Source: an uncultured bacterium (lineage in GTDB: Bacteria; Gemmatimonadota; Gemmatimonadetes; Gemmatimonadales; Gemmatimonadaceae). Taken from it: a stretch of 64,000 bases of DNA. The stretch's first letter is position 1. Each line of letters begins with the position of its first letter. The stretch covers positions 1 to 64,000 of the forward strand of contig CAXBQP010000008.1 of assembly GCA_963978095.1 (NCBI GenBank), written 5' to 3'. The notes under the pieces are model-generated. The model saw only the letters and a program-made list of their open reading frames with translations. It did no database searches and was not told where the DNA came from. Of the stretch, positions 19,853 through 40,060 are shown piece after piece. Made by a program: the position numbers and the translations under genes.

Positions 19853-19890
19853 ATGCGTCTGAACGCGGACTCGGGGGGAAAAGTTCTGCA

Positions 19891-19975
19891 TGCGAAAGGT
19901 GGGACTCGAACCCACACGCCTTTTTAGGGCACAGGATCCTAAGTCCTGCGCGTCTGCCAGTTTCGCCACTCTCGC
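19891..19975 (-). tRNA. tRNA-Leu (anticodon TAG), CCA not encoded
   Basis: Cloverleaf GCGAGAG..TGGCGAAACTGGCAGACG, anticodon arm CAGGA-CTTAGGA-TCCTG, long variable arm, GTTCGAGTC, 3' CTTTCGCA. Confidence 0.95.
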
Positions 19976-23930: not shown

Positions 23931-23948
23931 GTGTAACAATGCCGCAAC
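23931..23948 (+). promoter_or_regulatory. Weak Pho-box-like direct repeat upstream of DUF47-pit-ppk1
   Basis: GTGTAAC-aatg-CCGCAAC, 11-bp period. Confidence 0.35.
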
Positions 23949-23975
23949 ATCGGGTTATACGGCTGTCCAACTCGT

Positions 23976-24059: not shown

Positions 24060-24671
24060 GTGCGGCTTATTCCGAAAGACGAAGGGTTCTTCGAAATGTT
24101 CGATGGGCTCGCGGTCCGCATGACGCGATCGGCCACGCTCCTCAACCAACTGTTCACCGACCCGGGGCAGCTCGACCGGTACGTCGCGCAGATCAAGGAG
24201 ATCGAGCACGAAGCCGACGAGATCACGCACGAGATCATGAATCGGATCGACCGGAGTTTCGTCACCCCGCTCGATCGCGAGGACATCCACCTGCTCGCCA
24301 CGCGCTTGGACAACGTGGTCGATCTCATGGACGGCACGGCGCGTCGGGCCAAGATGTTCCACATCCACGACCGCAAGGAGCCGGCCAAGGAGCTGACGCG
24401 GGTCTTGGTCGCGGCCACGGAGCAGATCGCGCTCGGAGTGGCGTCACTGAAGGACGCGCGGCAGGTGCAGCTGATCGGACGCGAGGTCAAGCGGCTGGAG
24501 GAGGAGGCGGACGCGATCTACTCCGAGGCGGTCGGCGCCCTCTTCGAGGGGACGCCGGACGCGCTCGACGTCATCAAGTGGAAGGAGCTCTACGACAACA
24601 TCGAGCATGCGATCGACGAGGCGGAGGACGTGATCAACGTCCTGGAGAGCGTATCCCTCAAGAACAGCTGA
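24060..24671 (+). CDS. DUF47 / PhoU-like PiT accessory protein
   Basis: EHEADEI, FVTPLDREDI, LEEEAD, IKWKELY; directly upstream of PiT. Confidence 0.9.
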   Translation: MRLIPKDEGFFEMFDGLAVRMTRSATLLNQLFTDPGQLDRYVAQIKEIEHEADEITHEIMNRIDRSFVTPLDREDIHLLATRLDNVVDLMDGTARRAKMFHIHDRKEPAKELTRVLVAATEQIALGVASLKDARQVQLIGREVKRLEEEADAIYSEAVGALFEGTPDALDVIKWKELYDNIEHAIDEAEDVINVLESVSLKNS

Positions 24672-24675
24672 TCGC

Positions 24676-25719
24676 GTGCTGACGTACGTCCTCATCATCG
24701 TCGTCCTCGCGATCGGGTTCGACTTCATCAACGGGTTCCACGACTCCGCGAACTCCATCGCGACGATCGTCGGAACCCGGGTGCTGAGTCCGCTGGCGGC
24801 GGTCGTATGGGCGGCGACCTTCAACTTCGTGGCGGCCTTCTTCGGGAACACCGCGGTCGCGAAAGCGGTCAGCAGCGGGTTCGTCGACCAGCATGTCGTC
24901 GATGCCAACGTGATCTGTGCGGCCCTGATCGGCGCGATCGTGTGGAACCTGTTCACCTGGTTCTATGGCATCCCGTCGAGTTCGAGCCATGCGCTGATCG
25001 GCGGGTTCGCGGGCGCGGCCATCGCCAAAGGGGGATTCGCGGCGTTGACGTGGGGCACCAAGTGGATCCAGACGCTGTCGTTCATCGTCATCTCGCCCAC
25101 GCTCGGCGTGATCGTGGGCTTCCTGCTGATGGCCCTGGTGCTGAATCTGTTCCGCGCGGCGTCCCCGCGTCGCGTGGACAAGGTGTTCCGCCCCGGACAA
25201 CTCGCGAGCTCGGCCCTGTTGTCATTTGCGCACGGGCAGAACGATGCCCAGAAGACGATGGGGATCATTGTCGGGCTGTTGGTGGCAACGCAGCGCTATT
25301 TCGAACATGAGACCGGGTTCTGGCACCATTTCTATCTGGCGAACAACTCGCACATCCCGTGGTGGGTGGAGATGTGCGCCTACTCCGCCATTTCGCTTGG
25401 CACTCTGTTCGGCGGCTGGCGCATCGTGCACACGATGGGGTCGCGGATCACGCGGTTGCGCCCCGTGGGCGGCTTCGCGGCCGAGGGGGGCGGGGCGCTC
25501 GTGATCCTGGCGGCCACGAAGTTCGGGATCCCGGTCAGCACGACCCATACGATCACCGGTGCAATCGTCGGCGTCGGAGCCACGAATCGCTTGTCGGCCG
25601 TCCGCTGGGGGCTGGCCAGCCGCATCGTGTGGGCGTGGGTCGTGACGATTCCGGCGGCGGCGGCGATGGCGGCCATCAGCTACCTCCTCCTGTCGACGAC
25701 CATCGCGCCGTCGTTGTGA
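24676..25719 (+). CDS. pit: Inorganic phosphate transporter, PiT family
   Basis: NGFHDSANSIAT, PSSSSHALIG, HGQNDAQK, PVSTTH. Confidence 0.95.
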   Translation: MLTYVLIIVVLAIGFDFINGFHDSANSIATIVGTRVLSPLAAVVWAATFNFVAAFFGNTAVAKAVSSGFVDQHVVDANVICAALIGAIVWNLFTWFYGIPSSSSHALIGGFAGAAIAKGGFAALTWGTKWIQTLSFIVISPTLGVIVGFLLMALVLNLFRAASPRRVDKVFRPGQLASSALLSFAHGQNDAQKTMGIIVGLLVATQRYFEHETGFWHHFYLANNSHIPWWVEMCAYSAISLGTLFGGWRIVHTMGSRITRLRPVGGFAAEGGGALVILAATKFGIPVSTTHTITGAIVGVGATNRLSAVRWGLASRIVWAWVVTIPAAAAMAAISYLLLSTTIAPSL

Positions 25720-27884
25720 CGCGCTTCCGCGCCGATCCATCGCTGTTCATCAACCGCGAGCTGTCGTGGTTGGAGTTCAACTCGCGGGTACTGGCCGAAG
25801 CGTTCGACGAGCGGAATCCGCTGCTGGAGCGCCTGAAATTCCTCGCGATCTTCCACAGCAATCTCGACGAGTTCTACATGGTCCGGGTGGCGGGCTTGCG
25901 CCGCCAGATGTCGGCCCGTGTGCCAAGCGTGAGCAACGACGGCTTGTCGGCGCGGCAACAGCTCGACCTGATCGACCGCCGCGTGCGCGAGATGACGGAG
26001 TCGGTGCAGCACTGCCTGCACGACATTCTGTTGCCCGCCCTCGACGCGCACGGCATCCGCATCGTCTCCATGGACGATCTGTCCGCGACCGAGCGCGTCG
26101 GGGTCGATGCGTTCTTCGATCAGCAGGTCTTTCCCGTGCTCACACCGCTCGCGGTCGATCCGGGACACCCGTTTCCGTACATCTCCAACTTGTCGCTGTC
26201 GCTCGCGGTCGAACTCCGGCATCCGGACGGCACGGACGATCGGTTCGCGCGCGTCAAAGTCCCCAAGTCGCTGTCGCGCTGGGTGGCGGTCCCCGGGCGC
26301 CGCAACCATTTCATCCCGCTCGAAGCGGTCGTGAGCGCGCATCTCGCGCGACTCTTCCCGGGGATGCAGATCCTCGGCGCCCACGCCTTTCGCATCACCC
26401 GGTACAGCGATCTCGAGATCGCCGATACCGAGGAGCCGGAGGACCTGCTCGCCACCATCGAGGAGCAGGTCTTCCAGCGCCGATTCGGCGAAGTGGTGCG
26501 CCTCGAGGTCCAACGCGGAATGCCCGATGCTCTGCGCACGCTGTTGCTGGATGAGCTGCGCGAGAGCGAGGACCCCGAGTTCGAGCCGCTGAGCGATCGG
26601 GAGGTCCAGTCGGGTGGGCCGCTGCTCGACTTGGGCGATCTGATGACGCTCGCGGGAATCGACGTGCCGGCGTTGCGCGACACGCCGTTCGCGCCGGCGA
26701 TTCCGCCGGAGCTGCGCGACGCCGAGCCGTCCATCTTCGATGTCGTGCGCGCGCGCGATTTGCTGGTGCACCATCCGTTCGACTCGTTCGCGGCGACGGT
26801 GGAGCAGTTCATCGCGGCGGCGTCCAAGGACGATCGGACCCTGGCGATCAAGATGACCCTGTACCGGACCTCCGGTGATGGGGCGATCGTCCGCGCGCTG
26901 GTGGCGGCGGCACAGCGGGGAATCCAGGTCGCGGTGCTCGTGGAGTTGCAGGCGCGGTTCGAAGAGACCAACAACATCACGTGGGCCAGGACGCTCGAAT
27001 CGTACGGCGTCCACGTGGCCTACGGGCTCCCGGGGCTCAAGATCCACGCCAAGACCGCGCTCGTCGTCCGGCGCGAAGCCGACGGCATCCGCCGGTACGT
27101 GCACTTGGGCACTGGAAACTACAACGGACGGACCGCGCGCACGTATACCGACATCGGCTTGTTCACGTGCAGCGAGGCCATCGGTGCCGACGTCAGCGAT
27201 CTCTTCAACTCCCTGACGGGATTTTCGCGCCAACTCGTGTATCGCAAGCTGGCGGTGGCACCGAGTGGATTGCGCGACAAGGTCCACGCGCTGATCAGTC
27301 GTGAGGCCGCCCATGCCCGCGCCGGCCGGCCGGCGCGCATCATCGCCAAAATGAACGCGCTGGTGGACTCGGAAACGATTCTCGAACTGTACGAGGCCAG
27401 CCAGGCCGGTGTGCAGATCGACCTGATCGTCCGCGGCATCTGTTGCTTGCGGCCCGGGATGCCGGGTGTCAGCGACCGCATTCGGGTCACGAGCATCGTC
27501 GGCCGGTTCCTCGAGCATTCACGGCTCTGGTATTTCGCCAATGACGACGAGCCCGAGTACTGGATCAGCTCTGCCGATTGGATGCCCCGCAACTTCGACC
27601 GGCGGGTGGAAGCGGCCACGCCGATCGAGGATGTGGCGCTGCATCCCCGTTTGCGCGCGCTGCTGGACACCTGCCTGACGGACAACCAGCAGGCGTGGGA
27701 GCTGCAGGCCGACGGGGGATATGCCAAGCGGCATATCAGCGGCGAGCCGGCGCGTTCCACGCATCGGCTGCTGATGCTGGAGTCATGGGGGCAAGCCAAG
27801 CCAGGGCAGGGCGCCAAGGGGACGCGCCCCCGCGCGGCAGAAGAACCCGGCATCGCCGCGAGCGCCGGCTCGACCCACGGCTGA
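25716..27884 (+). CDS. ppk1: Polyphosphate kinase 1
   Basis: NRELSWLEFN, NLDEFYMVRV, HPFP, HHPF, GTGNYN, GRFLEHSR, SADWMPRN; GTG start overlaps the pit stop. Confidence 0.97.
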   Translation: MTRFRADPSLFINRELSWLEFNSRVLAEAFDERNPLLERLKFLAIFHSNLDEFYMVRVAGLRRQMSARVPSVSNDGLSARQQLDLIDRRVREMTESVQHCLHDILLPALDAHGIRIVSMDDLSATERVGVDAFFDQQVFPVLTPLAVDPGHPFPYISNLSLSLAVELRHPDGTDDRFARVKVPKSLSRWVAVPGRRNHFIPLEAVVSAHLARLFPGMQILGAHAFRITRYSDLEIADTEEPEDLLATIEEQVFQRRFGEVVRLEVQRGMPDALRTLLLDELRESEDPEFEPLSDREVQSGGPLLDLGDLMTLAGIDVPALRDTPFAPAIPPELRDAEPSIFDVVRARDLLVHHPFDSFAATVEQFIAAASKDDRTLAIKMTLYRTSGDGAIVRALVAAAQRGIQVAVLVELQARFEETNNITWARTLESYGVHVAYGLPGLKIHAKTALVVRREADGIRRYVHLGTGNYNGRTARTYTDIGLFTCSEAIGADVSDLFNSLTGFSRQLVYRKLAVAPSGLRDKVHALISREAAHARAGRPARIIAKMNALVDSETILELYEASQAGVQIDLIVRGICCLRPGMPGVSDRIRVTSIVGRFLEHSRLWYFANDDEPEYWISSADWMPRNFDRRVEAATPIEDVALHPRLRALLDTCLTDNQQAWELQADGGYAKRHISGEPARSTHRLLMLESWGQAKPGQGAKGTRPRAAEEPGIAASAGSTHG

Positions 27885-27913
27885 GGCCGGTCGGCGTCAG
27901 CGGGCCGCTGCGG

Positions 27914-29548
27914 TCACTCGACCGTTTCGGCCATCACCGGATCTTGCACGACGCGTCCATCCGGACCCACGATCTCCACGGGCGACCCGATGAGATCCGC
28001 CAACAGCTGAGATTTCCGCGCGGCACCCCAGAGTTCGAGCCGCAACGACTTGGCCCGCGGTGCGGCCACGGGTGTGATGCGCAGCGCACGTTCCATCCAC
28101 CGCACCTTGAGGCGCTCGACGGCCGCGACGTGCCCGCGGTCGAGTCCATCGGCGATCCGCAACAACGCCGACAGTCGCTTGACGCGGATGCGCGTCCCCT
28201 TGGGAAGTGCGGCGTATTCGGGGTGTTTGCGGCGGTCGGGCGGTGACCCCCGGTGATATCGCGCGACATGCGCGACGATCACCTGTTCCGTGGGCGACAT
28301 CCCCAGCAGCTCCGCGTGCAGAATCAGGTGATACGAGTGCTTGTTGTGCTTGACGTAGTTGATGTGGTAGCCCACGTCGTGGAGCAACGCCGCATCGGAC
28401 AGAATCTGCCGGTCCGCGGGCTCGCATCCGAGGCGGTGTCCGACGGCATCGTACAACTGCAGGGCGATGCGCTGTACCTGCCGGGAGTGCGGGGCCTCGT
28501 AGTGGCAGCGTTCCGCGAACTCGCGCACGGACCGCTCGCGCGCTTCGCCAGGATCGGCGATGTTCGCCTTGACCCGGGCCACGTCGAGCAGCAGCCCCTC
28601 CCGAATGCCATACGCCGACGCCCCGATCTCCCGGGGTTCGACCCGCGCGAGCACCTCGGCGGCCACCGCAAGCCCCGCCACGATGATGTCGGCGCGGCCC
28701 GCGTTCAGCCCAGGCACCGCCAGACGTTCTGCGAGGGTCATCTCGGCGAGCATATCGAGGACGTGCTCCACCTCGGCCCGCGGAATACGGGTGCCGTGCA
28801 CCGAGCGGGCGGCTCGCATCCCTTGGCGCGCCAGATAGATCCCCGCGAGGTTGGTGAAGGTCCCGCCGGACCCGATCACTTCCGCGCCCCGCCAGTCACG
28901 CACCGGGAGCACGGCGCGGATCTCCTCGCGGATGTGCTTCCGGAGCTTCTTGATCGCCTTCGGTGTGCTTCCCTTGCTCAGGAACTGCTCGGTAAGCCGC
29001 AAGGCGCCGAACGGTAACGATACGAGATGCTCGACCAACCCTTCCGCCGCGAGCGCGAGTTCGAGTGACCCGCCGCCGATGTCCATCACCACGCACCGAC
29101 CGTGGCCGAGCTCGAAGTGGGCGAGCGCCGAGCGGAATGCGAGCCGTGCTTCCTCGGAGCCGTCGAGCACGCGGACCTTCAGGCCGGTCTGTTGCCGCAC
29201 ACGGCTGAGGAACAGAGCGCCGTTGGCGGCATCGCGAACGGCGCTGGTTGCGACCGCCTCGACCCGCTTGGCGCCCAGTTGCCGGGCGAGGGTGGCCATC
29301 CGTTGCAGCGACTCCACGGCCAGGCGCATCGGCTCTTCGCCCAGCGCACCCGTCTCGCTGAGTCCGGCGCCAAGCCGCGGCGCCGCCTTCATTTCGTCGA
29401 CGATGCGGATGGAACCGTTGCGCCCGACATCCGCGATGATCTGCCGGATCGAGTTCGATCCGATGTCGATGGCCGCGATGCGCTGCTCGCCGTCGTCGCT
29501 TTGGGTGCGCGTCGCGTCATCGCCGGCCACGAAACGAAGAATCGTCAT
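27914..29548 (-). CDS. ppx: Ppx/GppA exopolyphosphatase with HD domain
   Basis: AAIDIGSNSIR, ATSAVRDA, DIGGGSLE, GIREG, LLHDVG. Confidence 0.93.
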   Translation of the reverse strand: MTILRFVAGDDATRTQSDDGEQRIAAIDIGSNSIRQIIADVGRNGSIRIVDEMKAAPRLGAGLSETGALGEEPMRLAVESLQRMATLARQLGAKRVEAVATSAVRDAANGALFLSRVRQQTGLKVRVLDGSEEARLAFRSALAHFELGHGRCVVMDIGGGSLELALAAEGLVEHLVSLPFGALRLTEQFLSKGSTPKAIKKLRKHIREEIRAVLPVRDWRGAEVIGSGGTFTNLAGIYLARQGMRAARSVHGTRIPRAEVEHVLDMLAEMTLAERLAVPGLNAGRADIIVAGLAVAAEVLARVEPREIGASAYGIREGLLLDVARVKANIADPGEARERSVREFAERCHYEAPHSRQVQRIALQLYDAVGHRLGCEPADRQILSDAALLHDVGYHINYVKHNKHSYHLILHAELLGMSPTEQVIVAHVARYHRGSPPDRRKHPEYAALPKGTRIRVKRLSALLRIADGLDRGHVAAVERLKVRWMERALRITPVAAPRAKSLRLELWGAARKSQLLADLIGSPVEIVGPDGRVVQDPVMAETVE

Positions 29549-29590
29549 GATGACAGTATCGTACTCCAAGGACGCGTTTTTGGCGAGGAG

Positions 29591-29632
29591 CCGTGACGCA
29601 AATGTGACGGAAATCGAGGAATAACGTGACAG
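29591..29632 (-). promoter_or_regulatory. Pho-box-like array in the ppx / TonB-receptor divergent region
   Basis: Minus strand CTGTCAC-gtta-TTCCTCG-attt-CCGTCAC-attt-GCGTCAC; GTCAC cores at 11/22-bp spacing. Confidence 0.65.
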
Positions 29633-29727
29633 GGGCTTGGGAGATTTCCGGACGTTCCTCCACGACCCGAACATCACCAACTCTCGGAGCGATGGTCATC
29701 GGATTCCGGTACCATCTGAAATCGAAC

Positions 29728-32700
29728 ATGAAGTTTTCTCGCACGTGGTGGGCAGCGCTGGTCTGCACACTCTGCCTATCCTTGCCCCTCGGGGCACAGA
29801 TCACGACGAGCGTCGTCAGCGGTCGCATTGTCGGGCCCAACGGTGAGGGACTCGCCGGCGTCCAGGTTGTTGCGACACTTCCCTCGACGGGAGAGCGCTA
29901 CGGCGCGATGTCCCGCGACGATGGCAAGTACCTGGTCGCAAATCTCCGTGCCGGCGGCCCGTACACCCTGACGTTCACGCGCCTCGGCTTCAAGAAGGAG
30001 ACGCGCGACGGCGTCATGGCGAACCTCGGCGCGAACGCGGTCATCAACGTGGCGATGACCGCAACCGCGGTGTCGCTGTCCTCCGTCACGGTCACTGCGG
30101 ATCCGAACGCGATCATCGACAAGTCCAAGACGGGCCCCTCAACGACGGTTTCCAAGGAACTCCTTGAGCGGTTGCCGTCCATCGCCCGGTCGATGCAGGA
30201 CTTTACGCGTCTGACGCCGCAAGGCGGCGGCGCGAACTCGTTCGGTGGAACGAACTTCCGTTATAACAACGTCACCATCGACGGCGCCGCGAGCAACGAT
30301 GTGTTCGCCTTCAGCGCCTCGGCTGGCGGCATCTCTGGGCAGGGACCGAGCGGCACGCCGGGTGCCGGCGCGCGGACGCAGCCCATCTCCTTGGATGCCG
30401 TCGCGGAAGTGCAGGCGGTGCTGGCGCCGTACGATGTGAAGATCGGCAACTTCACCGGTGGTTCGATCAATGCGGTGACCCGCAGCGGGACGAACACCTT
30501 GTCGGGTTCGGTGTTTTCATACGGCCGCAACCAGACCCTGACGGGCAAGAGTGCGGACACGTCGCGCACGAGCCTGCCGGCCTATTCGGATGTGCAGTTC
30601 GGCGGGCGGATCGGTGGCCCGATCATCAAGGACAAGGCTTTCTACTTCTTCACGGCCGAGTACGCGTCGCGCAATGAGCCGGTCGGGTACGCACCGGGCT
30701 CCACGGGGACCGTGATCGACGCGGCCACCGCCAAGGCGATCTCCGATACCCTCACCGCCCGCTATGGTTACAACGGCGGCTCCATCGGAGCCTACGACAA
30801 GCCGTTGCAGAACCTCAAGCTGTTCGGCCGCTTGGATTTCAACCTCAGCGACATGAACAAGCTGAGCATCCGGCACAACTACGTTGACGCGCATGCCTCG
30901 CTGTTCGAGCGCACGCCGTACCTGCTCAAGTTCGCCGGTCAGGATATCACGCAGTACAACCGGACGAACAGCACCGTTGCCGAGCTGAAGACGACCTTCG
31001 CCAGCGGTATCGCGAACAACCTGATCGCCAGCCTCGCCATCACGGACGACCATCGGTCGTATCCGGGGCAGCTGTTCCCGCAGTTGGAGATCACGGGCCC
31101 GTCGGGTGCCTCGATCTTCGTCGGCACGGATCGTGAGGCCTCGGTCTTCAAGATCGGTACCAAGGTGTTCGAGCTCACCGACAACCTGACGATGTACCGT
31201 GGAAACCACACGTTCACGTTTGGGTCGCACAATGAGTTCTACAACATCGACTACAACTTCCTGAATGCGTACAACGGCCGTTGGGCGTATTCGTCGATTG
31301 CGAACTTCTACGCCAACAAGCCGAGCCGCATCCGTGGTCAGTATGACCTGACGGACGATTCCTACAGCAACGTGATGGGTGCTCCGCAGGCGAGCTTCAA
31401 GGTTTACTGGCCCAGCGCGTACGCCCAGGATGAAATCGCGGTGTCGAACCGCCTGACGGTCACGCCGGGGCTGCGCATCGACGCCCCGATGTTCCCTGAC
31501 CAGATTCCGGTCAATCCGTTGATCACGGCAACGCCGGGCTGGTCCAAGTACACGAACACGCAGAGCACCCAGCTGTACTTTGCGCCTCGCGTGGCGTTCA
31601 ACTGGGACGTCAACGGCGACCAGTCGCTCCAGATCCGCGGTGGTACCGGCGTGTTCACCGGACGTGCTCCGTTTGCGTGGATGGCCTATGCGTATGAGAA
31701 TACCGGACTGAAGCTGGGCAACGTGGACTGCCGTCCGTCCACGACCTCGGGGTGTGCGGGCAACAGCGCGACCGTTCCACTCGTCACCGACGGCAAGAAC
31801 CTCAAGACGCTGCAGACTGGAGTCTTCGAGGCCAACATCCTCGACAACAACTTCAAGTTGCCGACGGTCATGCGTTCCAGCTTGTCGGCCGACATCAAGC
31901 TGCCCGCCGGCTACCTGCTGACGTTGGAAGCGATGTACACGCAGGTGGTGAATGACGTCAAGTTCCTGAACATCGGTCTCAAGGACACTTCCGTCGTGAA
32001 CCCGATCGACAACCGGACCACGTTCCTTGGCAGCCCGGTCCAGTTGCGCGTGAATCCCAACTTCACGTCCGTGTTCCTGATCACGAACACCAATCAGGGG
32101 TGGCGCCACAGCTTGACCGCGCAGCTTCGCAAGACCTGGCAGAACGGCTTCGACGGCATGTTTGCATACACCTACGGGCAGTCTCGCGACGTTGCCAATG
32201 GCATCCGCAACTCGCCGCAGTCGAACTGGGAGTACAACCAGGTTCCGGATGTACGCAGCCCGGGTCTCTCCAACTCGAATTTCGACATTCGTCACCGGTT
32301 GGTGGGATCGTTCGGCTACAAGAAGAACTGGGGAGGCGGTTATCTCACGGGTGTGTCGGCCGTGTTTACCGCATCGTCCGGCAGCCCGTTCACGTACATC
32401 TACGCCAGCGACGCGAATCGCGACGGCACGGGCAACAACGACTTGATCTATGTGCCGAAGGACTCCGCCGACTTCCACTACGTCGCGGTTGCTGGCGAAA
32501 CCCGCACGCCGAGTCAGGTGTGGCAGGCGCTCGATTCGTTCATCAAGAGCCAGCCAGGGCTGGATGCGTTGCGTGGTCAGATCGCCCCGCGCAACACTGG
32601 GCGCACCCCCTGGAACTCGCAGCTCGACCTGCGCGTGCTGCAGGACATCCCGCTGGCCGGGGTCGGTGCGGGTCACAAGGTCCAAGTGACGCTCGACATC

Positions 32701-32919
32701 GTCAATGTCGGCGCGATGCTTGGTACGACGTGGGGACGCCAGTACTTCGTGCCGAATGAAGAGAACTACAACTTCAAGTTGCTCCGCATCACGTCGAGCA
32801 ACGCGTCCGGCGTACCGACGGGCTACAGCTTTGACGGGGTGCCGAACAACACGCCGTGGCAGTACGACAATCTCTCGTCGCGTTATCAGGCGCAGCTCGG
32901 TCTGCGGTACTCGTTCTGA
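29728..32919 (+). CDS. TonB-dependent receptor, Oar-like, with N-terminal carboxypeptidase-regulatory-like domain
   Basis: Signal peptide, NLRAGGPY, NNVTIDG, plug GGSINAVTRSGTN, C-terminal QLGLRYSF. Confidence 0.9.
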   Translation: MKFSRTWWAALVCTLCLSLPLGAQITTSVVSGRIVGPNGEGLAGVQVVATLPSTGERYGAMSRDDGKYLVANLRAGGPYTLTFTRLGFKKETRDGVMANLGANAVINVAMTATAVSLSSVTVTADPNAIIDKSKTGPSTTVSKELLERLPSIARSMQDFTRLTPQGGGANSFGGTNFRYNNVTIDGAASNDVFAFSASAGGISGQGPSGTPGAGARTQPISLDAVAEVQAVLAPYDVKIGNFTGGSINAVTRSGTNTLSGSVFSYGRNQTLTGKSADTSRTSLPAYSDVQFGGRIGGPIIKDKAFYFFTAEYASRNEPVGYAPGSTGTVIDAATAKAISDTLTARYGYNGGSIGAYDKPLQNLKLFGRLDFNLSDMNKLSIRHNYVDAHASLFERTPYLLKFAGQDITQYNRTNSTVAELKTTFASGIANNLIASLAITDDHRSYPGQLFPQLEITGPSGASIFVGTDREASVFKIGTKVFELTDNLTMYRGNHTFTFGSHNEFYNIDYNFLNAYNGRWAYSSIANFYANKPSRIRGQYDLTDDSYSNVMGAPQASFKVYWPSAYAQDEIAVSNRLTVTPGLRIDAPMFPDQIPVNPLITATPGWSKYTNTQSTQLYFAPRVAFNWDVNGDQSLQIRGGTGVFTGRAPFAWMAYAYENTGLKLGNVDCRPSTTSGCAGNSATVPLVTDGKNLKTLQTGVFEANILDNNFKLPTVMRSSLSADIKLPAGYLLTLEAMYTQVVNDVKFLNIGLKDTSVVNPIDNRTTFLGSPVQLRVNPNFTSVFLITNTNQGWRHSLTAQLRKTWQNGFDGMFAYTYGQSRDVANGIRNSPQSNWEYNQVPDVRSPGLSNSNFDIRHRLVGSFGYKKNWGGGYLTGVSAVFTASSGSPFTYIYASDANRDGTGNNDLIYVPKDSADFHYVAVAGETRTPSQVWQALDSFIKSQPGLDALRGQIAPRNTGRTPWNSQLDLRVLQDIPLAGVGAGHKVQVTLDIVNVGAMLGTTWGRQYFVPNEENYNFKLLRITSSNASGVPTGYSFDGVPNNTPWQYDNLSSRYQAQLGLRYSF

Positions 32920-32941
32920 GCTAGGCGACTGACAGGAGGCA

Positions 32942-32981
32942 GAAAGGGCCGGCTCCCCAATGGGAGCCGGCCCTTTCGTTT
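32942..32981. terminator. Bidirectional intrinsic terminator between TonB receptor and phoR
   Basis: 16-bp stem GAAAGGGCCGGCTCCC-CAAT-GGGAGCCGGCCCTTTC with T-rich ends on both strands. Confidence 0.85.
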
Positions 32982-32983
32982 GG

Positions 32984-34690
32984 TCAGCGCTGGGGAGGGA
33001 AGTTCGCCATGATCGTCGTCCCCGCCCCCAGCACGCTCTCCGCTTTGACCTTCCCCCCGTGGGCCTCCACCAGATGCTTCACGATGGCGAGGCCAAGCCC
33101 CGTCCCCCCCTCGGCGCGGGAGCGGCCCGGATCAACCCGGTAGAACCGCTCGAAGATGCGGGGGAGATGCTGCGTCGGGATGCCCACGCCCGTGTCCCGG
33201 ACGCCGACCGTCACCCCGCCGTCGTCGCGGGGCCGCGAAAAGATCACGACGGCACCGGTGGCCGTGTGGCGCACGGCGTTGTCCACGAGATTGCCGATGA
33301 TCTGGCGCAGCGCCGTCGAATCGGCGAAGAGCGCGGCCGCCCCGGGGTGGATATCCACGGACAGGGTCAGCCCCTTCGCGTCGGCGGCGTCGCGGGCGGC
33401 CGTGATCGTGTCGGTTGCCACCGACGCCAGGTCGATCGTGGTCGGATTGGGAACCCAGCCGCCGCTCTCGATGCGCGAGAGGTCGAGCAGGTCATCGACG
33501 ATCCGCTGCATGCGCCGCGTGTTGTTGAGAATGCGATCCGCGAACTGCCGGCGGCTCTCCGCCGGCGGATCGTCCTGCGCGAGCGTTTCGGCAAAGCCGC
33601 CCACGATGGTCAGTGGCGTGCGCAGTTCGTGGGACACATTCGCCACGAAATCGCGCCGGACCGCCTCGAGGCGCCGGACGCGGGTGAGGTCGAGGAGTGC
33701 CAGAACGGCCCCCCCACTGGCCAGTGGACGAGCGGTGACGTTCAGGGTGCGCCCCGAAATCACCAGTTCGGCATCGTCGGTGGTGTCGCCATTGGTCGCG
33801 CTCGCCAGGGCGTCGCGGAGCACCGTGGCGCGTGGCAGGATATCGGAGTGGAAGGGCAACACATCCCGGACGTTGAGCAAGCGGCGCGCGGTCTCGTTGA
33901 TGCGCACCACGAGCCCGGCCGTATCGACGGCGATCACACCCTCGTTCAGCGATTCGGTCAGCTGGACGAGCAGCGATTCGTCCGCTTGCAGGGCGGCCAG
34001 GCGCGCGGAGAGTTGTTCGGCCAGCTGATGGAGCGCCACCGCGAGATCACCCACCTCGCCGGGGGCGCGGATCTTGGGGCGCCGCGCCAGATCCCCCGCG
34101 GCCAGCGCGCGCGCGACGTCGCGGAGTTCGACCACGGGACGCGAGACCGCCTGGGAGAACAGCCAGGCCAGCACCAGCGCCCCGAGCAGCGCGAGGGCTC
34201 CGGCCGACGTGACGTCCCGCCCCGCGGCCGCGACGATGGCATCCAACGAACCGGTGGGCACCGACACACGCGCCACGCCGAGCGGCGCGCGGACGGCGAC
34301 GTAGAGCTCGACGTCCCCGCGCGACGCACTCGACCGCAAGGCAGATCCGACGCGACCACGGATCGCGTCCGCCACCTCGGGCCGACTGCGATGGTTCTCG
34401 AGTCGCCGCAACCCTTGCTCGTCGAAATCGGTGTCGCCGATCACCACCCCATCCTCGCGGATGAGCGTCACGCGGCGCCCGAGCGACTGGCCGGCGGCGT
34501 GCGCGAGCGCCGACGGATCGGACGCCGGAGTCCATTGCGTGGCCACGAACCGGGCCTCGCGCGCGAGATTCTGCGTGGTCTCGTCGCGCAGGCGCTGGCT
34601 CAGCTGGCGGCTCACCACGACGACGATGAAGACGACGAGGAATCCGACGACCGCGACCGCCCCCAGCAGGAGGCGCTGGGTGAGCTTCAC
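32984..34690 (-). CDS. phoR: Sensor histidine kinase PhoR (HAMP-PAS-HisKA-HATPase)
   Basis: LENHRSRPEV, RRDFVANVSHELRTPLT, FERFYRVD, GTGLGLAIVKH. Confidence 0.88.
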   Translation of the reverse strand: MKLTQRLLLGAVAVVGFLVVFIVVVVSRQLSQRLRDETTQNLAREARFVATQWTPASDPSALAHAAGQSLGRRVTLIREDGVVIGDTDFDEQGLRRLENHRSRPEVADAIRGRVGSALRSSASRGDVELYVAVRAPLGVARVSVPTGSLDAIVAAAGRDVTSAGALALLGALVLAWLFSQAVSRPVVELRDVARALAAGDLARRPKIRAPGEVGDLAVALHQLAEQLSARLAALQADESLLVQLTESLNEGVIAVDTAGLVVRINETARRLLNVRDVLPFHSDILPRATVLRDALASATNGDTTDDAELVISGRTLNVTARPLASGGAVLALLDLTRVRRLEAVRRDFVANVSHELRTPLTIVGGFAETLAQDDPPAESRRQFADRILNNTRRMQRIVDDLLDLSRIESGGWVPNPTTIDLASVATDTITAARDAADAKGLTLSVDIHPGAAALFADSTALRQIIGNLVDNAVRHTATGAVVIFSRPRDDGGVTVGVRDTGVGIPTQHLPRIFERFYRVDPGRSRAEGGTGLGLAIVKHLVEAHGGKVKAESVLGAGTTIMANFPPQR

Positions 34691-35400
34691 GCGTCCTTGC
34701 CGGTCGCGGATTTCATGCGGTAGCCGAATCCGCGGACGGTCTCGATCAGATCACCGGACTTGCCCAGCTTGGACCGCAAGCGGAGCACGTGCATGTCCAC
34801 GGTGCGGGTCTGGATGTCTGGCGCGGCCTCCCAGACCTTCTCGAGCAGTTGCGACCGCCCCTGCGTACGGCCGCGCCGCTCGGCGAGCGTGAGCAGCAGC
34901 TTGTACTCCGTGGCGGTGAGCTCCACCGGTGCGCCCTTCAGCGTGACGCTGTTGGCGGCACGGTCGATCACGATGTCGTCGATGGCCAGGATGTCGGCCG
35001 CACTCGACGGGGCCGACACGCGCCGCAGAATGGCCCCCACGCGGAGCACCATCTCCTGCGGACTGAACGGTTTGGTCAGGTAATCGTCGGCGCCCAACGA
35101 GAGGCCGCGGATGCGGTCGGGCTCTTCCTTGCGTGCGGTCAGCATCAGCACGGCAATATGGCGCGTCCCCTCATCGGCCCGGAGCTGCTCCAGGACGTCG
35201 AAGCCGGACAGGCCGGGCAGCATGAGGTCCAGCACGATCAGCGACGGACGCTCGCGTTTCGCGATCGCCAGCGCGTCGGTTCCCGTGCTGGCCGTCGAGA
35301 CACGATACCCGGCTTTTGCCAGATGATAGACGACGAGCGCGACGATGTCGGGTTCGTCGTCGACGATCAGGACGCGGTCGGATGCGATGGATGCAGTCAC
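34687..35400 (-). CDS. phoB: OmpR-family response regulator, PhoB-like
   Basis: IVDDEPD, LDLMLPG, GADDYLTKPF, RTVDMHVLRLR, ETVRGFGY; coupled to phoR. Confidence 0.85.
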   Translation of the reverse strand: MTASIASDRVLIVDDEPDIVALVVYHLAKAGYRVSTASTGTDALAIAKRERPSLIVLDLMLPGLSGFDVLEQLRADEGTRHIAVLMLTARKEEPDRIRGLSLGADDYLTKPFSPQEMVLRVGAILRRVSAPSSAADILAIDDIVIDRAANSVTLKGAPVELTATEYKLLLTLAERRGRTQGRSQLLEKVWEAAPDIQTRTVDMHVLRLRSKLGKSGDLIETVRGFGYRMKSATGKDA

Positions 35401-35419
35401 GGCAGTGGAGTCGGAAAGG

Positions 35420-36040
35420 TCACGTCGGTTGCAGACGACGCAGGATGGTGTTGATGATCAGATCGATGGCGACGGTGTTGTGCCCGCCGCGCGGGACGAT
35501 GATGTCGGCGTAGCGCTTGCTGGGTTCCACGAACTGCAGGTGCATCGGCTGCACGGTCGTCAGGTACTGCTCCAGGATCTCCTCCAGCGGACGTCCCCGG
35601 TTGGCCATGTCACGGCGGATGCGCCGGATGAGGCGCACATCGGCATCCGCGTCGACGAACACCTTCACGTCGCACCGCGAGCGGACGCGCTCGTCCACGA
35701 AGAGCAGGATGCCGTCGACCACGATCACGTCGGCGGCCTCGATGCGGACCGTGTGCTCCGCCCGCAGGTGCGTGACGAAATCGTAGACGGGCTTGTCGAT
35801 CGCCTTGCCATCGGCGAGCGCCATGAGATGCGCCGCCAGGAGGTCCAGGTCGAAGGCGTCGGGATGGTCCCAGTTCACCTTTCGACGCTCGTCGATGGAG
35901 AGGTCGGAGCGATGCTTGTAATACGCGTCCATGTCCAGGAACGCGACTTTCGCCGGCGTCAGTGCGTCCGCGATGCGATGCGCCACGGTGGACTTGCCTG
36001 ATCCAGACCCACCGGCAATTCCGATGATCAGTCGTCGCAT
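35420..36040 (-). CDS. udk: Uridine kinase
   Basis: GIAGGSGSGKS, NWDHPDAFD, PVYDF, RRIRRD, FVEPSKRYADIIVP. Confidence 0.95.
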   Translation of the reverse strand: MRRLIIGIAGGSGSGKSTVAHRIADALTPAKVAFLDMDAYYKHRSDLSIDERRKVNWDHPDAFDLDLLAAHLMALADGKAIDKPVYDFVTHLRAEHTVRIEAADVIVVDGILLFVDERVRSRCDVKVFVDADADVRLIRRIRRDMANRGRPLEEILEQYLTTVQPMHLQFVEPSKRYADIIVPRGGHNTVAIDLIINTILRRLQPT

Positions 36041-36099
36041 CGGCGATTCTGCGAGGTCGAAGACACGTCTTGAATGTCCATGAGGAGGCTGGGGAACAG

Positions 36100-36128
36100 A
36101 AGCCACGGTGCTGTCACAGTCCTGTATC
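36100..36128 (+). promoter_or_regulatory. Pho-box-like array in the udk-phoBR / nucleotidase divergent region
   Basis: AAGCCAC-ggtg-CTGTCAC-agtc-CTGTATC, 11-bp period. Confidence 0.55.
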
Positions 36129-36229
36129 GTCGCCCGATCGTGACGGGCCCCGTCTGAAATATGGCGAGTCGAGGGCACCGCGTGCCCCGGACACTCCCCG
36201 CGTCCCCCCGCACCGCATAGCTTTCACTG

Positions 36230-37951
36230 ATGGAACGATGCCCGTACCCTCTCCGGCGCCTGGCCACGGCGATGGCGCTCTGCGCTGTGCCGGCGGTCGT
36301 GTTCGCGCAGCGCTCCGCTCCACCGGGCGGACGCGTCGTGGATCTGGTGGTGACGGCCACCACCGACGTCCATGGGCGGGTTCGCGGGTGGGACTACTAT
36401 GCCGACACGGCGGAAGGGGGGCGCGGCCTCTCGCGGGCCGCCACGATCGTCGATTCCGTGCGGACCGCCAACCCTGGCCGCGTCCTCCTCGTGGACGCGG
36501 GTGATCTGTTGCAGGGGAACCCGTTCACGTATGTGGCACGCGACGGCAAGGGGGCGCATCCCGTGATCGCGGCCATGAACGCCATGCGCTACGACGCGGT
36601 GGCGGTCGGGAACCATGAATTCAACTACGGGATTCCGGCCTTCGAGCGGGCGAGCGCGCAGGCCACCTTTCCTTTTCTGGCGGCCAACTCGCGGAGTCTG
36701 GACGGCAAGAAACGTTGGTCGCCCTTCACCCTCGTCGTGCGCGACGGGGTGAAAGTCGGCATCATCGGCGTCACGAACCCGGGCTCCATGGTGTGGGACG
36801 CTGAGAATCTCCGGGGGAAGGTCGCGATCGACGACATCCTGCCGGCGGTGCGGCGCACGGTCGGCGCGGCGCGGGCGGCGGGGGCGCAGGTCATCGTCGT
36901 GGTGGCGCATGCCGGACTGGATGGCGTGGCATCCTACGACACCGTCGGGACGGGGCTCGGCAGCGAGAACCCGATGGCGGCGGTGGCCAAACAGGTGCCG
37001 GGCATCGACCTGATCGTCTTTGGGCACTCGCACCGCGAGTTGGGCGATACGTTGATCAACGGCGTGCTCCTCACCCAGCCGCGCAACTGGGCCACGAGCG
37101 TCTCGGTGGCGCACCTCACGGTGCGTCTGGAGAACGGGAACGCCACCGTCACCGCGCGGCATGCCGACCTGGTGCGGTCAACGGGGCATGGCGAGCAGGC
37201 GGCGGTGGTTTCTGCCGCGCGGGTGGGGCACACGCGGGCGCGCACCTACTCGACCGCCGTGATCGGCCGCACCACCGCCGATTGGCGCGCCGATTCGGCC
37301 CGGGTGGTCGATACGCCGATCATGGATTTCGTGCTCGAGGTGATGCGCAAGGCGGCCGGGACGGACTTGGCGTCGGCGGCGGCATTCTCCACTGAGGCGC
37401 GTCTGGCCAAAGGCAATGTCACGGTGGCGCAGTTGGCGTTGTTGTATCCCTACGACAACACCCTCAAGGGCCTGCGGATTTCCGGTCGACAGCTCCGCGA
37501 GTATCTGGAACAGAGTGCGCGCTACTGGCAGGTCACCGGAAGCCAGGTGACCCCGGATCCCGCGATTCCGTCCTTCAATTTCGAAATGGTGGCGGGCGCC
37601 GACTACTCAATGGATCTGTCCAAGCCGCTCGGCGCGCGGATCACGGGGCTGACGGTGAAGGGAGTGCCTGTTCGGGACGGCGATTCCTTCACCATCGCGC
37701 TGTCGAACTACCGAGCGGGTGGCGCGGGAGGGTACACCATGCTGCGCGGCGCATCGCTGATGCACGACAAGCAACTGGAGATCCGCCAGCTGCTGATCGA
37801 CGAAGTGATGGCCAGGAAAACGTTGCAGCCATCGGATTATTTCACCCGTAACTGGGCACTGACGCCGGATGCGCTGCAGCAGGCCGCGGCCGCGGCATCG
37901 GTCCATGAACGTCCGTTCGATGCGATTCGTCCACTCAATCATTTCCCATGA
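36230..37951 (+). CDS. cpdB: Periplasmic 2',3'-cyclic-nucleotide 2'-phosphodiesterase / nucleotidase
   Basis: Signal peptide; TTDVHG, DAGDLLQG, GNHEFNYG, GHSH metallophosphoesterase motifs; LYPYDN, SNYRAGG. Confidence 0.85.
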   Translation: MERCPYPLRRLATAMALCAVPAVVFAQRSAPPGGRVVDLVVTATTDVHGRVRGWDYYADTAEGGRGLSRAATIVDSVRTANPGRVLLVDAGDLLQGNPFTYVARDGKGAHPVIAAMNAMRYDAVAVGNHEFNYGIPAFERASAQATFPFLAANSRSLDGKKRWSPFTLVVRDGVKVGIIGVTNPGSMVWDAENLRGKVAIDDILPAVRRTVGAARAAGAQVIVVVAHAGLDGVASYDTVGTGLGSENPMAAVAKQVPGIDLIVFGHSHRELGDTLINGVLLTQPRNWATSVSVAHLTVRLENGNATVTARHADLVRSTGHGEQAAVVSAARVGHTRARTYSTAVIGRTTADWRADSARVVDTPIMDFVLEVMRKAAGTDLASAAAFSTEARLAKGNVTVAQLALLYPYDNTLKGLRISGRQLREYLEQSARYWQVTGSQVTPDPAIPSFNFEMVAGADYSMDLSKPLGARITGLTVKGVPVRDGDSFTIALSNYRAGGAGGYTMLRGASLMHDKQLEIRQLLIDEVMARKTLQPSDYFTRNWALTPDALQQAAAAASVHERPFDAIRPLNHFP

Positions 37952-38193
37952 CCGAACCCACTGAGGTCCGCGCCTTCGTCAACGGCGCGGCAGTAGCTGT
38001 CGCCCGCGGTGCCACGGTGATCGACGCCGTCCGCACGCACGACGCCACCATCGCCGAGGCGCTTGAAGCGGGCACCCGCGCGGCCACCGACAGCCGCGGG
38101 CTCCCGGTGGCGCTCAACGAGGCCGTCACGGGGGGCATGGTGTTGCGCATCGTCTCGGCGCGCGCCTTGGCCGGACACGGGGACGACGAATGA
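37948..38193 (+). CDS. Small hypothetical protein, probable beta-grasp (ThiS/ubiquitin-like) fold
   Basis: 81 aa, ATGA-coupled on both sides; VRAFVNG-x-AVAV-x-GATVIDAV...GMVLRIV pattern. Confidence 0.7.
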   Translation: MTEPTEVRAFVNGAAVAVARGATVIDAVRTHDATIAEALEAGTRAATDSRGLPVALNEAVTGGMVLRIVSARALAGHGDDE

Positions 38194-39233
38194 ACGCGGT
38201 GAGCGCCGAGCTGTTGCGTCGGATCCCGAAGGCGGAGTTGCACTGCCATCTCGACGGCAGCGTCCGCCCCACGACGCTTCTCGATCTCGGCGCGGAGTAC
38301 GGGGTGACGATGCCGGGGCAGACGCCGGCTGAACTCGCGCACCACATGTACGTGCGCGACGCGCGCCATCTGGAGGACTATCTCGCGCGCTTCGATACGA
38401 CGCTCGCCGTCATGCAGACCGAGGCGTCGCTCGAACGCATCGCCTACGAGCTCGCCGAGGACGCGTGGCACGATGGCGTCCGCTACATCGAGGTGCGGTA
38501 TGCACCCGTGCTCAATGTGGTGGGGGGGATCTCGATGGAGGCCGCCGTGGACGCTCCGCTCCGCGGGCTCGCCCGCGCCAAGGCCGACCATGGGATCGAG
38601 GGACGGTTGATCATCTGCTCGCTGCGGCACCTCGACCCGGCGATCTCGCTCGAGCTCGCTCGGCTCGCGGTGGCATATCAGGGCAAGGGCGTCGTCGGCT
38701 TCGACCTCGCGGGGGGCGAGCTCGGGAATCCCGCCGCGCGCCATGCGAAGGCGTTCGAGCACGCACGGTCGCACGGCATGTTCTGCACCTGTCATGCTGG
38801 CGAAGGGGACGGCGCGGATTCCGTGCGCGAGGCGGTGCATGTCTGCGGGGCGCAGCGGATCGGACACGGCACCCGCCTGATCGAAGATCTGCGCCTCACG
38901 GACGAGCTCGCCAAAGCGGGGGTCGCGATCGAAGCGTGTCTCACGAGCAATGTGCAGACGCGTGCCATTCCCGACTACGAACATCACCCGCTGCGCGCCT
39001 ATTTCGAGCGCGGCATGAAGGTCACGCTCAATACCGATAACCGGCTGATGAGCGGGACCACGCTCACCGACGAGTATGTGCACGCCGCACGGGCGCTGCA
39101 CTTCGGGTTCGACGAGCTCTGCACACTGGCGCGCAACGGCTTTGAAAGTGCGTTCCTTCCGGTCGGCGAGCGGGCCGCGCTGCTCGAGCGCATCGACACG
39201 GAACTGGCCGCCCTCAGGCAGGAGGTGGTATGA
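38190..39233 (+). CDS. add: Adenosine deaminase
   Basis: PKAELHCHLDGS, GFDLAG, HAGE, RIGHG, NTDN. Confidence 0.95.
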   Translation: MNAVSAELLRRIPKAELHCHLDGSVRPTTLLDLGAEYGVTMPGQTPAELAHHMYVRDARHLEDYLARFDTTLAVMQTEASLERIAYELAEDAWHDGVRYIEVRYAPVLNVVGGISMEAAVDAPLRGLARAKADHGIEGRLIICSLRHLDPAISLELARLAVAYQGKGVVGFDLAGGELGNPAARHAKAFEHARSHGMFCTCHAGEGDGADSVREAVHVCGAQRIGHGTRLIEDLRLTDELAKAGVAIEACLTSNVQTRAIPDYEHHPLRAYFERGMKVTLNTDNRLMSGTTLTDEYVHAARALHFGFDELCTLARNGFESAFLPVGERAALLERIDTELAALRQEVV

Positions 39234-40060
39234 GCGATCACGGATCCAGCGCCGCGCGAGCCGCTGCGGACGCCGTCCAGCTACGGCTCGGGGTGAAGGC
39301 GCCGGTGGCCGCCATCGTCCTCGGGTCCGGCCTTTCCGCGCTGGCCGACCGGATCGAGGACGCGGTGCGCATCCCGTACGCCGAGATCCCGGGGTTCCAC
39401 GCCCCGCGCGTGGACGGGCACAAGGGCGAACTGATTCGGGGATTCCTCGGCGGACGCGAGATCCTCGCCTTGTCCGGCCGGTTCCATATGTACGAGGGGT
39501 ACGATGCCAAGGCCGCCGGATTCCCGGTGCGCGTCGTGCACGCGCTGGGCGCGAAGGTGCTCTTCGTGTCGAACGCGGCGGGCGGAGTGCGCCGCACCTT
39601 CAACGCCGGCGATCTGATGATCATCGAGGACCACATCAACCTGATGTTCCGGAACCCGCTGATCGGCAGCCTCGAGAGCGGTGATACACGGTTCCCGGAT
39701 ATGTCCGCGCCTTATTCGCCGCGATTGATCGCGCTGCTCAAGGCGTCTGCCACCGCGACCGGCGTGCCGCTCACGTCCGGGGTCTATGCCGGGCTGCTGG
39801 GCCCGACGTATGAGACCCCTTCGGAAGTGCGCATGCTGGAACGTGTCGGCGCGGACGCCACGGGCATGAGCACCATCCCCGAGACGGTGGTGGCGGCCGC
39901 GATCGGGATGGAGGTCGCCGGCATCAGTCTGATCACGAACCAGGCGGCCGGGATCAGCACGGTGCCACTCAATCACGCCGACGTGGTCGAGGTCGGCCAT
40001 GCGGCGGCCAAGCGCTTCGCGGATCTCGTGACGGAGTTCGTGCGCCGGCTCAGCGCGTAG
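39230..40060 (+). CDS. punA: Purine-nucleoside phosphorylase (trimeric type)
   Basis: VLGSGL, GRFHMYEG, NAAGG, GPTYETPSE, GMST, ITNQAAG. Confidence 0.95.
   Translation: MSDHGSSAARAAADAVQLRLGVKAPVAAIVLGSGLSALADRIEDAVRIPYAEIPGFHAPRVDGHKGELIRGFLGGREILALSGRFHMYEGYDAKAAGFPVRVVHALGAKVLFVSNAAGGVRRTFNAGDLMIIEDHINLMFRNPLIGSLESGDTRFPDMSAPYSPRLIALLKASATATGVPLTSGVYAGLLGPTYETPSEVRMLERVGADATGMSTIPETVVAAAIGMEVAGISLITNQAAGISTVPLNHADVVEVGHAAAKRFADLVTEFVRRLSA

Follow-up and report, generated by a model that had tools for sequence, protein, structure and literature searches.

The first 64,000 nt of contig CAXBQP010000008.1, from an uncultured member of the Gemmatimonadaceae, form the window analyzed here, and positions 24060..40060 carry twelve contiguous genes in which a phosphate regulon (pho) locus, an Oar-type TonB-dependent receptor and a set of nucleotide salvage genes lie side by side. 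The families assigned to all twelve in an initial annotation are confirmed by Pfam and NCBIfam profile matches, and the names carried by homologues likewise place the host in the Gemmatimonadaceae. The gene survey covers the window, and genome-wide searches cover the 2.98 Mb assembly (genome G000), which is 91% complete.

The first three genes are on the forward strand and code for a DUF47 / PhoU-like Pit accessory protein (24060..24671; PF01865, E 3e-21), a PiT-family phosphate transporter (pit, 24676..25719; PF01384, E 1e-93) and polyphosphate kinase 1 (ppk1, 25716..27884; TIGR03705 at 820 bits, over its cut-off), the last with a probable GTG start that overlaps the pit stop codon. A reverse-strand gene for a Ppx/GppA exopolyphosphatase with an HD-like domain follows (ppx, 27914..29548, with a predicted start; PF02541, PF21447), and beyond it is the forward, monocistronic receptor gene (29728..32919; PF25183 plus PF13620), whose product has 1063 aa. 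Three reverse-strand genes come next: phoR, for a PhoR-like sensor kinase with HisKA and HAMP domains (32984..34690; best models PnpS and phoR_proteo, below cut-off), phoB, for a PhoB-like response regulator of the OmpR type (34687..35400; TIGR02154 at 240.6 bits, cut-off 296.2), and the uridine kinase gene udk (35420..36040; TIGR00235 and NF004018, over cut-off). The final four are again forward: a CpdB-like secreted nucleotidase/phosphodiesterase gene of 573 codons (cpdB, 36230..37951; PF00149 and PF02872, the metallophos and 5_nucleotid_C domains), a gene for an 81-aa Gemmatimonadota protein that we call X (37948..38193), the adenosine deaminase gene add (38190..39233; TIGR01430 over cut-off) and a PunA-type purine nucleoside phosphorylase gene (punA, 39230..40060; NF006054 and TIGR01697 over cut-off).

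By strand and spacing these genes fall into five transcription units, DUF47-pit-ppk1 (+), ppx (-), the receptor (+), udk-phoB-phoR (-) and cpdB-X-add-punA (+), the genes of the last overlapping by 4 bp and being read as one operon. The receptor gene has no SusD partner; downstream of it are a strong 36-nt hairpin (32942..32977; z -8.3 and -7.3, 0/200 shuffles each) and then the convergent phoR. The hairpin is probably a bidirectional terminator; it is missing from the list returned by the terminator scan. A sigma-70 scan stayed at chance level (1 site found against 1.8 expected). Four aquatic metatranscriptome runs from a single study share 16–30% of the sequence words and are not counted as evidence here. 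That the twelve genes make up one unit is not confirmed, given the five transcription units, the terminator-like hairpin and a strong Pho box between udk and cpdB that points away from cpdB.

The absence of pstSCAB and phoU from the window, already noted in the initial annotation, extends to the whole genome: pstS, phoU and pstC were not found in the assembly, and no pstB match passed its cut-off. The only PF01384 gene found is pit, and PiT is apparently the sole importer of inorganic phosphate (Pi) in this bacterium; PhoD and a CNT/NupC transporter were likewise not found in the genome. Pst loss is real within the genus, because G265, a relative at 100% completeness, also lacks pstS, phoU and pstC; it is one of 6 among 30 genus genomes with neither pstS nor phoU. 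A tally of 150 family genomes at least 95% complete, in which the unpublished G148 and G519 are counted, found pstC in 126 and did not find it in 24. All three receptor-bearing genomes (G000, G003 and G294) are without pstC, a set that is small and not independent. One further genus member, G010 (97% complete), yielded none of a phoB orthologue, a phoR orthologue, pstS and phoU.

Synteny was compared in 89 loci reaching at most 20 kb around the best phoB match of each, namely the phoB matches of all 29 relatives and 60 chosen from about 100 further places, with all further family members taken first and then long contigs of other groups. First, the order dnaK, DUF47, pit, ppk1, ppx, gap, phoR, phoB, udk, cpdB, X, add, punA, m48, spoU, pilD is recurrent. 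Second, among order-level loci with enough flank (n = 63), 58 have add at most about 6 kb from phoB, 50 have cpdB and 27 have udk. The salvage genes stay linked to phoBR across the order, so that the unlinking in relatives which would have counted against the initial annotation is not seen. This linkage is old, order-wide and real, but it is not specific, because the unrelated m48, spoU and pilD genes are linked almost as often (at least one of them in 45/63 loci); add is present in 0/18 loci from other orders, where some of the phoB matches may not be orthologues. Third, orthologues of the window's phoR adjoin pst genes and those of its phoB are syntenic with pstSCAB-phoU; pst genes stand downstream of phoB in 49/58 order-level loci, which favors the PhoB and PhoR assignments; the receptor gene is found in 0/58.

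Fourth, the gap between phoR and ppx, where pstSCAB is the normal content, serves as an uptake slot whose cassette can be exchanged, as its contents differ between this genome and its near relatives. The two closest genomes, G265 and G271, have PhoR and Ppx proteins 87–89% identical to those of the window and the same eleven genes, with the receptor missing. In G265 the gap is empty, all that is left being a Pho box and the joined remnants of a lost cassette (a deletion scar), and in G271 it holds a TonB-dependent transporter (TBDT), an FII-like lipoprotein, a small lipoprotein and pstS. Eleven of the twelve genes are an ancestral neighborhood, and the receptor is a rare, lineage-specific occupant. 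The label FII-like is given from context and from the Pfam architecture listed in PMC8115612, without direct alignment to Flavobacterium proteins. Elsewhere in the class, a Pho-boxed module of a PF14905 TBDT, an FII-like lipoprotein and a lipoprotein of about 200 aa stands beside phoBR in 26/89 phoB loci (for example L039:10010-15233 and L260:10661-17245), in some cases has a solitary pstS behind it with no pstCAB, and resembles Flavobacterium PUSIV. An unannotated and probably porin-like protein with no Pfam or NCBIfam match also accompanies pstS, alternating with the Porin_O_P family (L051:10531-11697; cluster 13, 26 loci).

A Pho-box matrix was built by expectation maximization, seeded with a repeat spotted by eye and trained on 102 regions upstream of relatives' pstS, porin and TBDT genes. 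The learned motif is an 11-bp repeat on the sense strand, YYGT(G/T)AC-N4-YCGT(T/G)AC, and its polarity follows from the promoters used for training, which score in sense and in many cases lie in head-to-tail arrangements. These sets score by construction, reaching at least 12 bits in sense in 25/26 TBDT promoters and in 15/18 and 6/6 porin promoters (3, 2 and 1, respectively, in antisense), and control regions outside the training sets never reach that value (spoU 0/26, m48 0/9, dnaK 0/9, punA 0/58). We rejected a polarity like that of the E. coli box, by which the boxes would point at cpdB and ppx, since the relatives' pst, porin and TBDT promoters give the opposite one. The genome holds 58 sites of at least 12 bits and 7 of at least 16 bits.

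The initial annotation had placed Pho-box-like repeats in all three promoter regions of the locus, and two of these stand out beyond chance. Facing the receptor is a box at 29591..29632 (+ strand) with half-sites at 29593, 29604 and 29626 in 11-bp phase; at 16.3 bits it is the sixth highest site in the genome and was matched by 0/2000 shuffles. A second box, of three half-sites in 11-bp phase, faces udk-phoB-phoR (36100..36130, - strand, site 36119; 14.9 bits, 1/2000 shuffles) and is conserved in G265 and G271. Across the family udk is the first gene of this Pho-boxed operon (30 loci), the box reaching at least 12 bits in 26/30 and starting 78–94 bp before udk, a nearly fixed distance while the udk-cpdB gap varies from 132 to 292 bp. 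Read on their opposite strands, the ppx-receptor and udk-cpdB gaps give 17/2000 and 19/2000 shuffles. The third region, between dnaK and DUF47, holds a conserved Pho-box-like element (23931..23950, 135 bp upstream of DUF47) that is weak on both strands and ambiguous in polarity, scoring 10.2 bits toward DUF47-pit and 9.2 bits away from it (13.9 away with a symmetrised matrix; 29/2000 and 28/2000 shuffles). It is conserved in G003, G265 and G271 and fits better facing away (13.5 bits in G265 and 12.8 in G271), and a DUF47-facing site of at least 12 bits in sense is present in 3/12 relatives' loci.

Among the other top sites of G000 (C40:7789-10941, C58:9944-13057, C20:34424-37834 and C70:8807-9715) are those preceding two SusC-like TBDTs, the second Oar-type receptor and a phosphodiesterase gene adjoining glycosyltransferase genes, a candidate Pho regulon in which TonB receptors are prominent. 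The window also contains carotenoid genes at 16534-19969 (phytoene desaturase-like, phytoene synthase and PF04240), and an 18-bit Pho-box-like site inside the phytoene desaturase-like gene (crtI) is probably there by chance. Locus L036 has the udk box of the family turned around toward cpdB (14.0 bits). Similar repeats of 11 bp are recognized by OmpR-family regulators, and the genome encodes four other OmpR-type regulators, so that the repeat could belong to one of these, the synteny could be neutral and the receptor could have landed in the slot by chance; the 58 genome-wide sites, one of them inside crtI, would fit such a view. Against it, the matrix was learned from promoters of pstS, porin and PUS-like genes, spoU, m48 and dnaK controls score zero, one of the top genome sites precedes phosphodiesterase and glycosyltransferase genes that are found in relatives' pho loci, and independent receptor orthologues directly follow phoR. 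We regard this explanation as highly improbable.

The receptor has 33 close homologues at 54–89% identity, after which identity drops to 47% or less (three partial proteins further down have 59–66%), the next group belonging to the Bacteroidota where titles are given. It is present in 1 of 29 other genus genomes (G003), has no match above 37% identity in 150 family genomes, and has one 42% match (G294) among 400 family genomes when two candidates are scored per genome. Orthologues at 55–72% identity have a sense box in 7/7 loci (13.7–21.1 bits, 6 distinct sites), and in two of these loci the receptor directly follows phoR, with the order phoR-receptor-ppx in L175 and phoB-phoR-receptor in L176. 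The G294 receptor, which has an ambiguous box (9.9 bits sense, 13.6 antisense) and a non-pho context, was left out of this count. More distant Oar-type paralogues within the family reach 12 bits in 9/18 loci (3/18 in antisense; one of the 18, L097, is from unpublished genome G251), and the second full-length Oar-type receptor of the genome has an upstream box of 12.4 bits. The PhoBR control assumed in the initial annotation thus very probably extends, to judge by motif and context, to the receptor, and udk belongs to the boxed phoBR operon, but cpdB-X-add-punA has no conserved facing box in the family.

Protein-atlas clusters share the receptor's architecture, one of them being named for the Oar family, and there was no sequence match in the PDB. 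Its gene has a GC content of 0.62, and 0.84 at third codon positions, compared with GC of 0.63–0.72 for its neighbors. In a FastTree tree the Gemmatimonadota clade containing it is sister to the Bacteroidota rows and not inside them (the root position is not established, and row L269 is probably a wrong-frame open reading frame). Horizontal transfer from Bacteroidota was considered for the lower GC, but with the Gemmatimonadota clade outside the Bacteroidota rows no donor is claimed.

Clustering the neighbors of Bacteroidota homologues (101 loci) gave PHO4 transporters (12), glycosyltransferases (12), metallophosphoesterases (8) and FII-like lipoproteins (8); DUF47 and two-component pairs also recur beside them, and many others have unrelated neighbors. 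Four Chitinophagaceae homologues (L115, L117, L119 and L132) lie inside arsenosugar clusters (arsS, arsM, TIGR04282, TIGR04283, TIGR04169) that also hold a PiT-family gene and a purine nucleoside phosphorylase gene. The glycosyltransferase/metallophosphoesterase pair that many homologues adjoin is presumably of the lipid-remodelling kind, and a Pho-induced receptor with neither a SusD partner nor a co-transcribed hydrolase might remodel the envelope under phosphorus starvation rather than import organic phosphorus. It might instead export a protein, as Oar is needed for PopC secretion in Myxococcus (PMC11658791; PMC6434023). However, the receptor sits where Pst, porins or PUS-like uptake modules are placed in other genomes, the usual function of a TBDT is import, and the likeness to Myxococcus Oar is judged from domain architecture; a role in export or envelope remodeling therefore strikes us as rather improbable.

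The CpdB-like protein scores 254 bits with the CpdB model (cut-off 486) and 110 bits with UshA, nearer CpdB and below both cut-offs. Its metal-site motifs are present, its best PDB matches are YfkN and CpdB, and its signal peptide was judged by eye. The relatives' CpdB-like proteins mostly have two tandem nucleotidase modules in about 1050 aa (for example L021:7543-10665), and those of this genome, G265 and G271 have one. Tables in PMC10454023 give -/+ for Gemmatimonadota, which we take as probably meaning ushA-like absent and cpdB-like present. Protein X was found in 53/89 loci, and we favor its interpretation as an adenosine deaminase accessory domain, because it is fused to Add in four loci (L026, L031, L073 and L074; two were translated) and because 67/68 longer homologues carry PF00962 (database matches P0145-P0211), with the fusion, in many Gemmatimonadales, at the Add N-terminus; one homologue is fused to CpdB. 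A weak Fer2_4 match in 9/48 members and weak PDB matches confined to the first 28 residues suggest a beta-grasp-like fold, and the 48 members gave no NCBIfam match. A ThiS/MoaD sulfur carrier and a 2Fe-2S ferredoxin were both rejected for X, as the consensus of the 48-row alignment lacks Cys and a C-terminal GG.

The initial annotation had joined these genes and the receptor into one PhoBR-controlled nucleotide-mining island, in which the receptor would import nucleotides, CpdB would free Pi, and udk, add and punA would salvage the nucleosides under the same control. There are several points in its favor: the nearness of add and cpdB to phoB across the order, the place of udk inside a Pho-boxed operon, boxes of at least 12 bits facing cpdB or add in 8/32 udk-less loci of other families (three of them both ways), by which the salvage operon may be under Pho control in other lineages, and a PF03825 nucleoside symporter gene elsewhere in the genome. 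In Vibrio, CpdB activity rises under Pi limitation, post-transcriptionally (PMC4714964). In addition, nupC is inserted in the salvage operon in 17/29 loci of other families, consistent with nucleotides being used as a source of nucleosides, carbon or nitrogen in addition to phosphorus. But none of the 58 testable loci of relatives has the receptor, and neither do the two closest genomes; cpdB-X-add-punA predates the receptor and persists without it. The strong box points the other way from cpdB, and it is the spacing to udk that it maintains; the window's cpdB-facing site is weak (9.3 bits, 19/2000 shuffles; 11.3 bits with a symmetrised matrix) and is not conserved in G265 and G271, and such a site is present in 3/30 udk loci. 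Housekeeping genes are linked to phoB almost as often as salvage genes, and add is not found near it in other orders. Finally, receptor homologues lack salvage neighbors, barring the phosphorylase in arsenosugar-type clusters and one cpdB-like match. The integrated island is not established, and we consider it unlikely.

It is more probable, though well short of certain, that an ancestral Gemmatimonadales pho locus stands here back to back with an independent cpdB-X-add-punA operon, and that Pst has been replaced in its slot by a Pho-boxed Oar-type receptor. Low Pi would activate PhoR/PhoB, and PhoB would raise its own operon, udk-phoB-phoR, together with the uptake cassette that happens to occupy the phoR-ppx slot; in most relatives this cassette consists of pstSCAB-phoU, in some cases accompanied by a porin or TBDT-lipoprotein module. 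The receptor might concentrate a scarce phosphorus-bearing solute in the periplasm (phosphate esters, oligonucleotides or polyphosphate), where hydrolases, CpdB among the candidates, would free Pi; PiT would import it, and PPK1 and PPX would store and release it. CpdB could feed Pi into this route, with the salvage operon under its own control. Nothing ties the receptor's cargo to nucleotides, and a nucleotide cargo is unproven.

Several observations weigh against this reading. First, the PhoB and PhoR matches, best as these models are, lie below curated cut-offs, and the genome is 91% complete. Second, 4/7 orthologue loci lack a pho-locus context or lie in an unrelated one (the context of L116 is unrelated, L172 and L174 have a different two-component pair, and L173 and L178 are too short). 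Third, only 19/80 homologue loci reach 12 bits, 6 of these being orthologues, and most Bacteroidota fall below. Fourth, G265, G268 and G274 are Pst-less yet have no such receptor, which is thus not an obligatory replacement. Finally, the weak cpdB-facing site of the window and the boxes facing cpdB or add in udk-less loci sit poorly with an independent salvage operon.

Oar-type receptors are abundant and almost all are without a known cargo; a Pho box and repeated placement in the pst slot give one Oar-type subfamily a phosphorus function that can be put to the test in two phyla. A bolder proposal, which we hold to be doubtful, is that a SusD-less Oar-type subfamily common to Gemmatimonadota and Bacteroidota is specialized for importing scavenged phosphorus (as nucleotides, oligonucleotides or polyphosphate) and is able to take the place of PstSCAB-PhoU, that PhoB couples it through udk and cpdB-X-add-punA to nucleoside salvage, and that PhoR senses Pi without Pst/PhoU, possibly through PiT/DUF47. 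That some Gemmatimonadaceae do without Pst and PhoU makes phosphate sensing by PhoR a matter of interest in these bacteria, in which pyrimidine salvage (udk) is also tied to PhoB autoregulation. The lineage Pho-box matrix enables regulon prediction in a poorly cultured phylum; our searches of the open-access literature turned up no study of a Pho box in Gemmatimonadota, of udk-phoBR or of Oar-type receptors tied to Pho or to phosphate.

The closest parallel is with Flavobacterium, whose phosphate utilisation system (PUS) strategy, with PusCD and orphan TBDTs, is described as having no PstSCAB, a PitA-type importer, TonB transporters linked to low Pi, and periplasmic phosphoesterases, with a TBDT and FII lipoprotein in the phoBR operon and with a Pi-induced orphan TBDT, Fjoh_3841, that has pf13620 as its sole annotation (PMC8115612). 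Here too PstSCAB was not found, Pit is present and a TonB receptor is linked to low Pi, in this case by motif and context, and we favor a Flavobacterium-like Pst-free strategy in which a Pho-controlled TonB receptor and PiT would operate beside separately controlled nucleotide salvage. The phylum is different, however, and the single Oar-type receptor has no PusD/SusD and no co-transcribed phosphatase, for which reason we do not file it as a PUS member; cpdB is 3.3 kb from it in a separate unit without a convincing box. The comparison with Fjoh_3841 is one of annotation.

Within the Gemmatimonadota, pstSCAB is given as the main phosphate uptake route (PMC10581226). The locus shares phoBR, ppk1, ppx and the position of an uptake cassette with the canonical phoBR-pstSCAB-phoU locus, and differs in the absence of pstSCAB-phoU, in having udk at the head of the phoBR operon and in its sense-strand box GT(G/T)AC, the reverse complement of the E. 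coli-type box. We take the orfA gene of Sinorhizobium to be a DUF47 gene. Its orfA-pit pair is reported to be repressed on Pi starvation (PMC3131613), a precedent for the DUF47 element that fits better facing away, and the DUF47-pit pair with a box-like element upstream is common to both, whereas here ppk1 follows and pit apparently encodes the only Pi importer. Vibrio cholerae scavenges phosphate from nucleotides and extracellular DNA with PhoX, UshA, CpdB and NupC (PMC4714964); common to both is a periplasmic nucleotidase that would free Pi with salvage of the nucleosides (judged here from the genes), but porins and Pst were proposed for Vibrio in place of the TonB receptor and PiT found here. 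Precedents for nucleotidases not transcribed by PhoB are Vibrio cpdB, for which Pi limitation is reported to induce activity and not transcription (PMC4714964), and Salmonella ushA2, described as PhoB-independent (PMC10715179). With other Oar-subclass TBDTs, such as Myxococcus Oar and the Oar-like proteins of Xanthomonas (PMC1790865), the receptor shares an N-terminal carboxypeptidase-regulatory-like extension, a PF25183 barrel and a length of about 1060 aa, and what sets it apart is its Pho box and its position in the pst slot.

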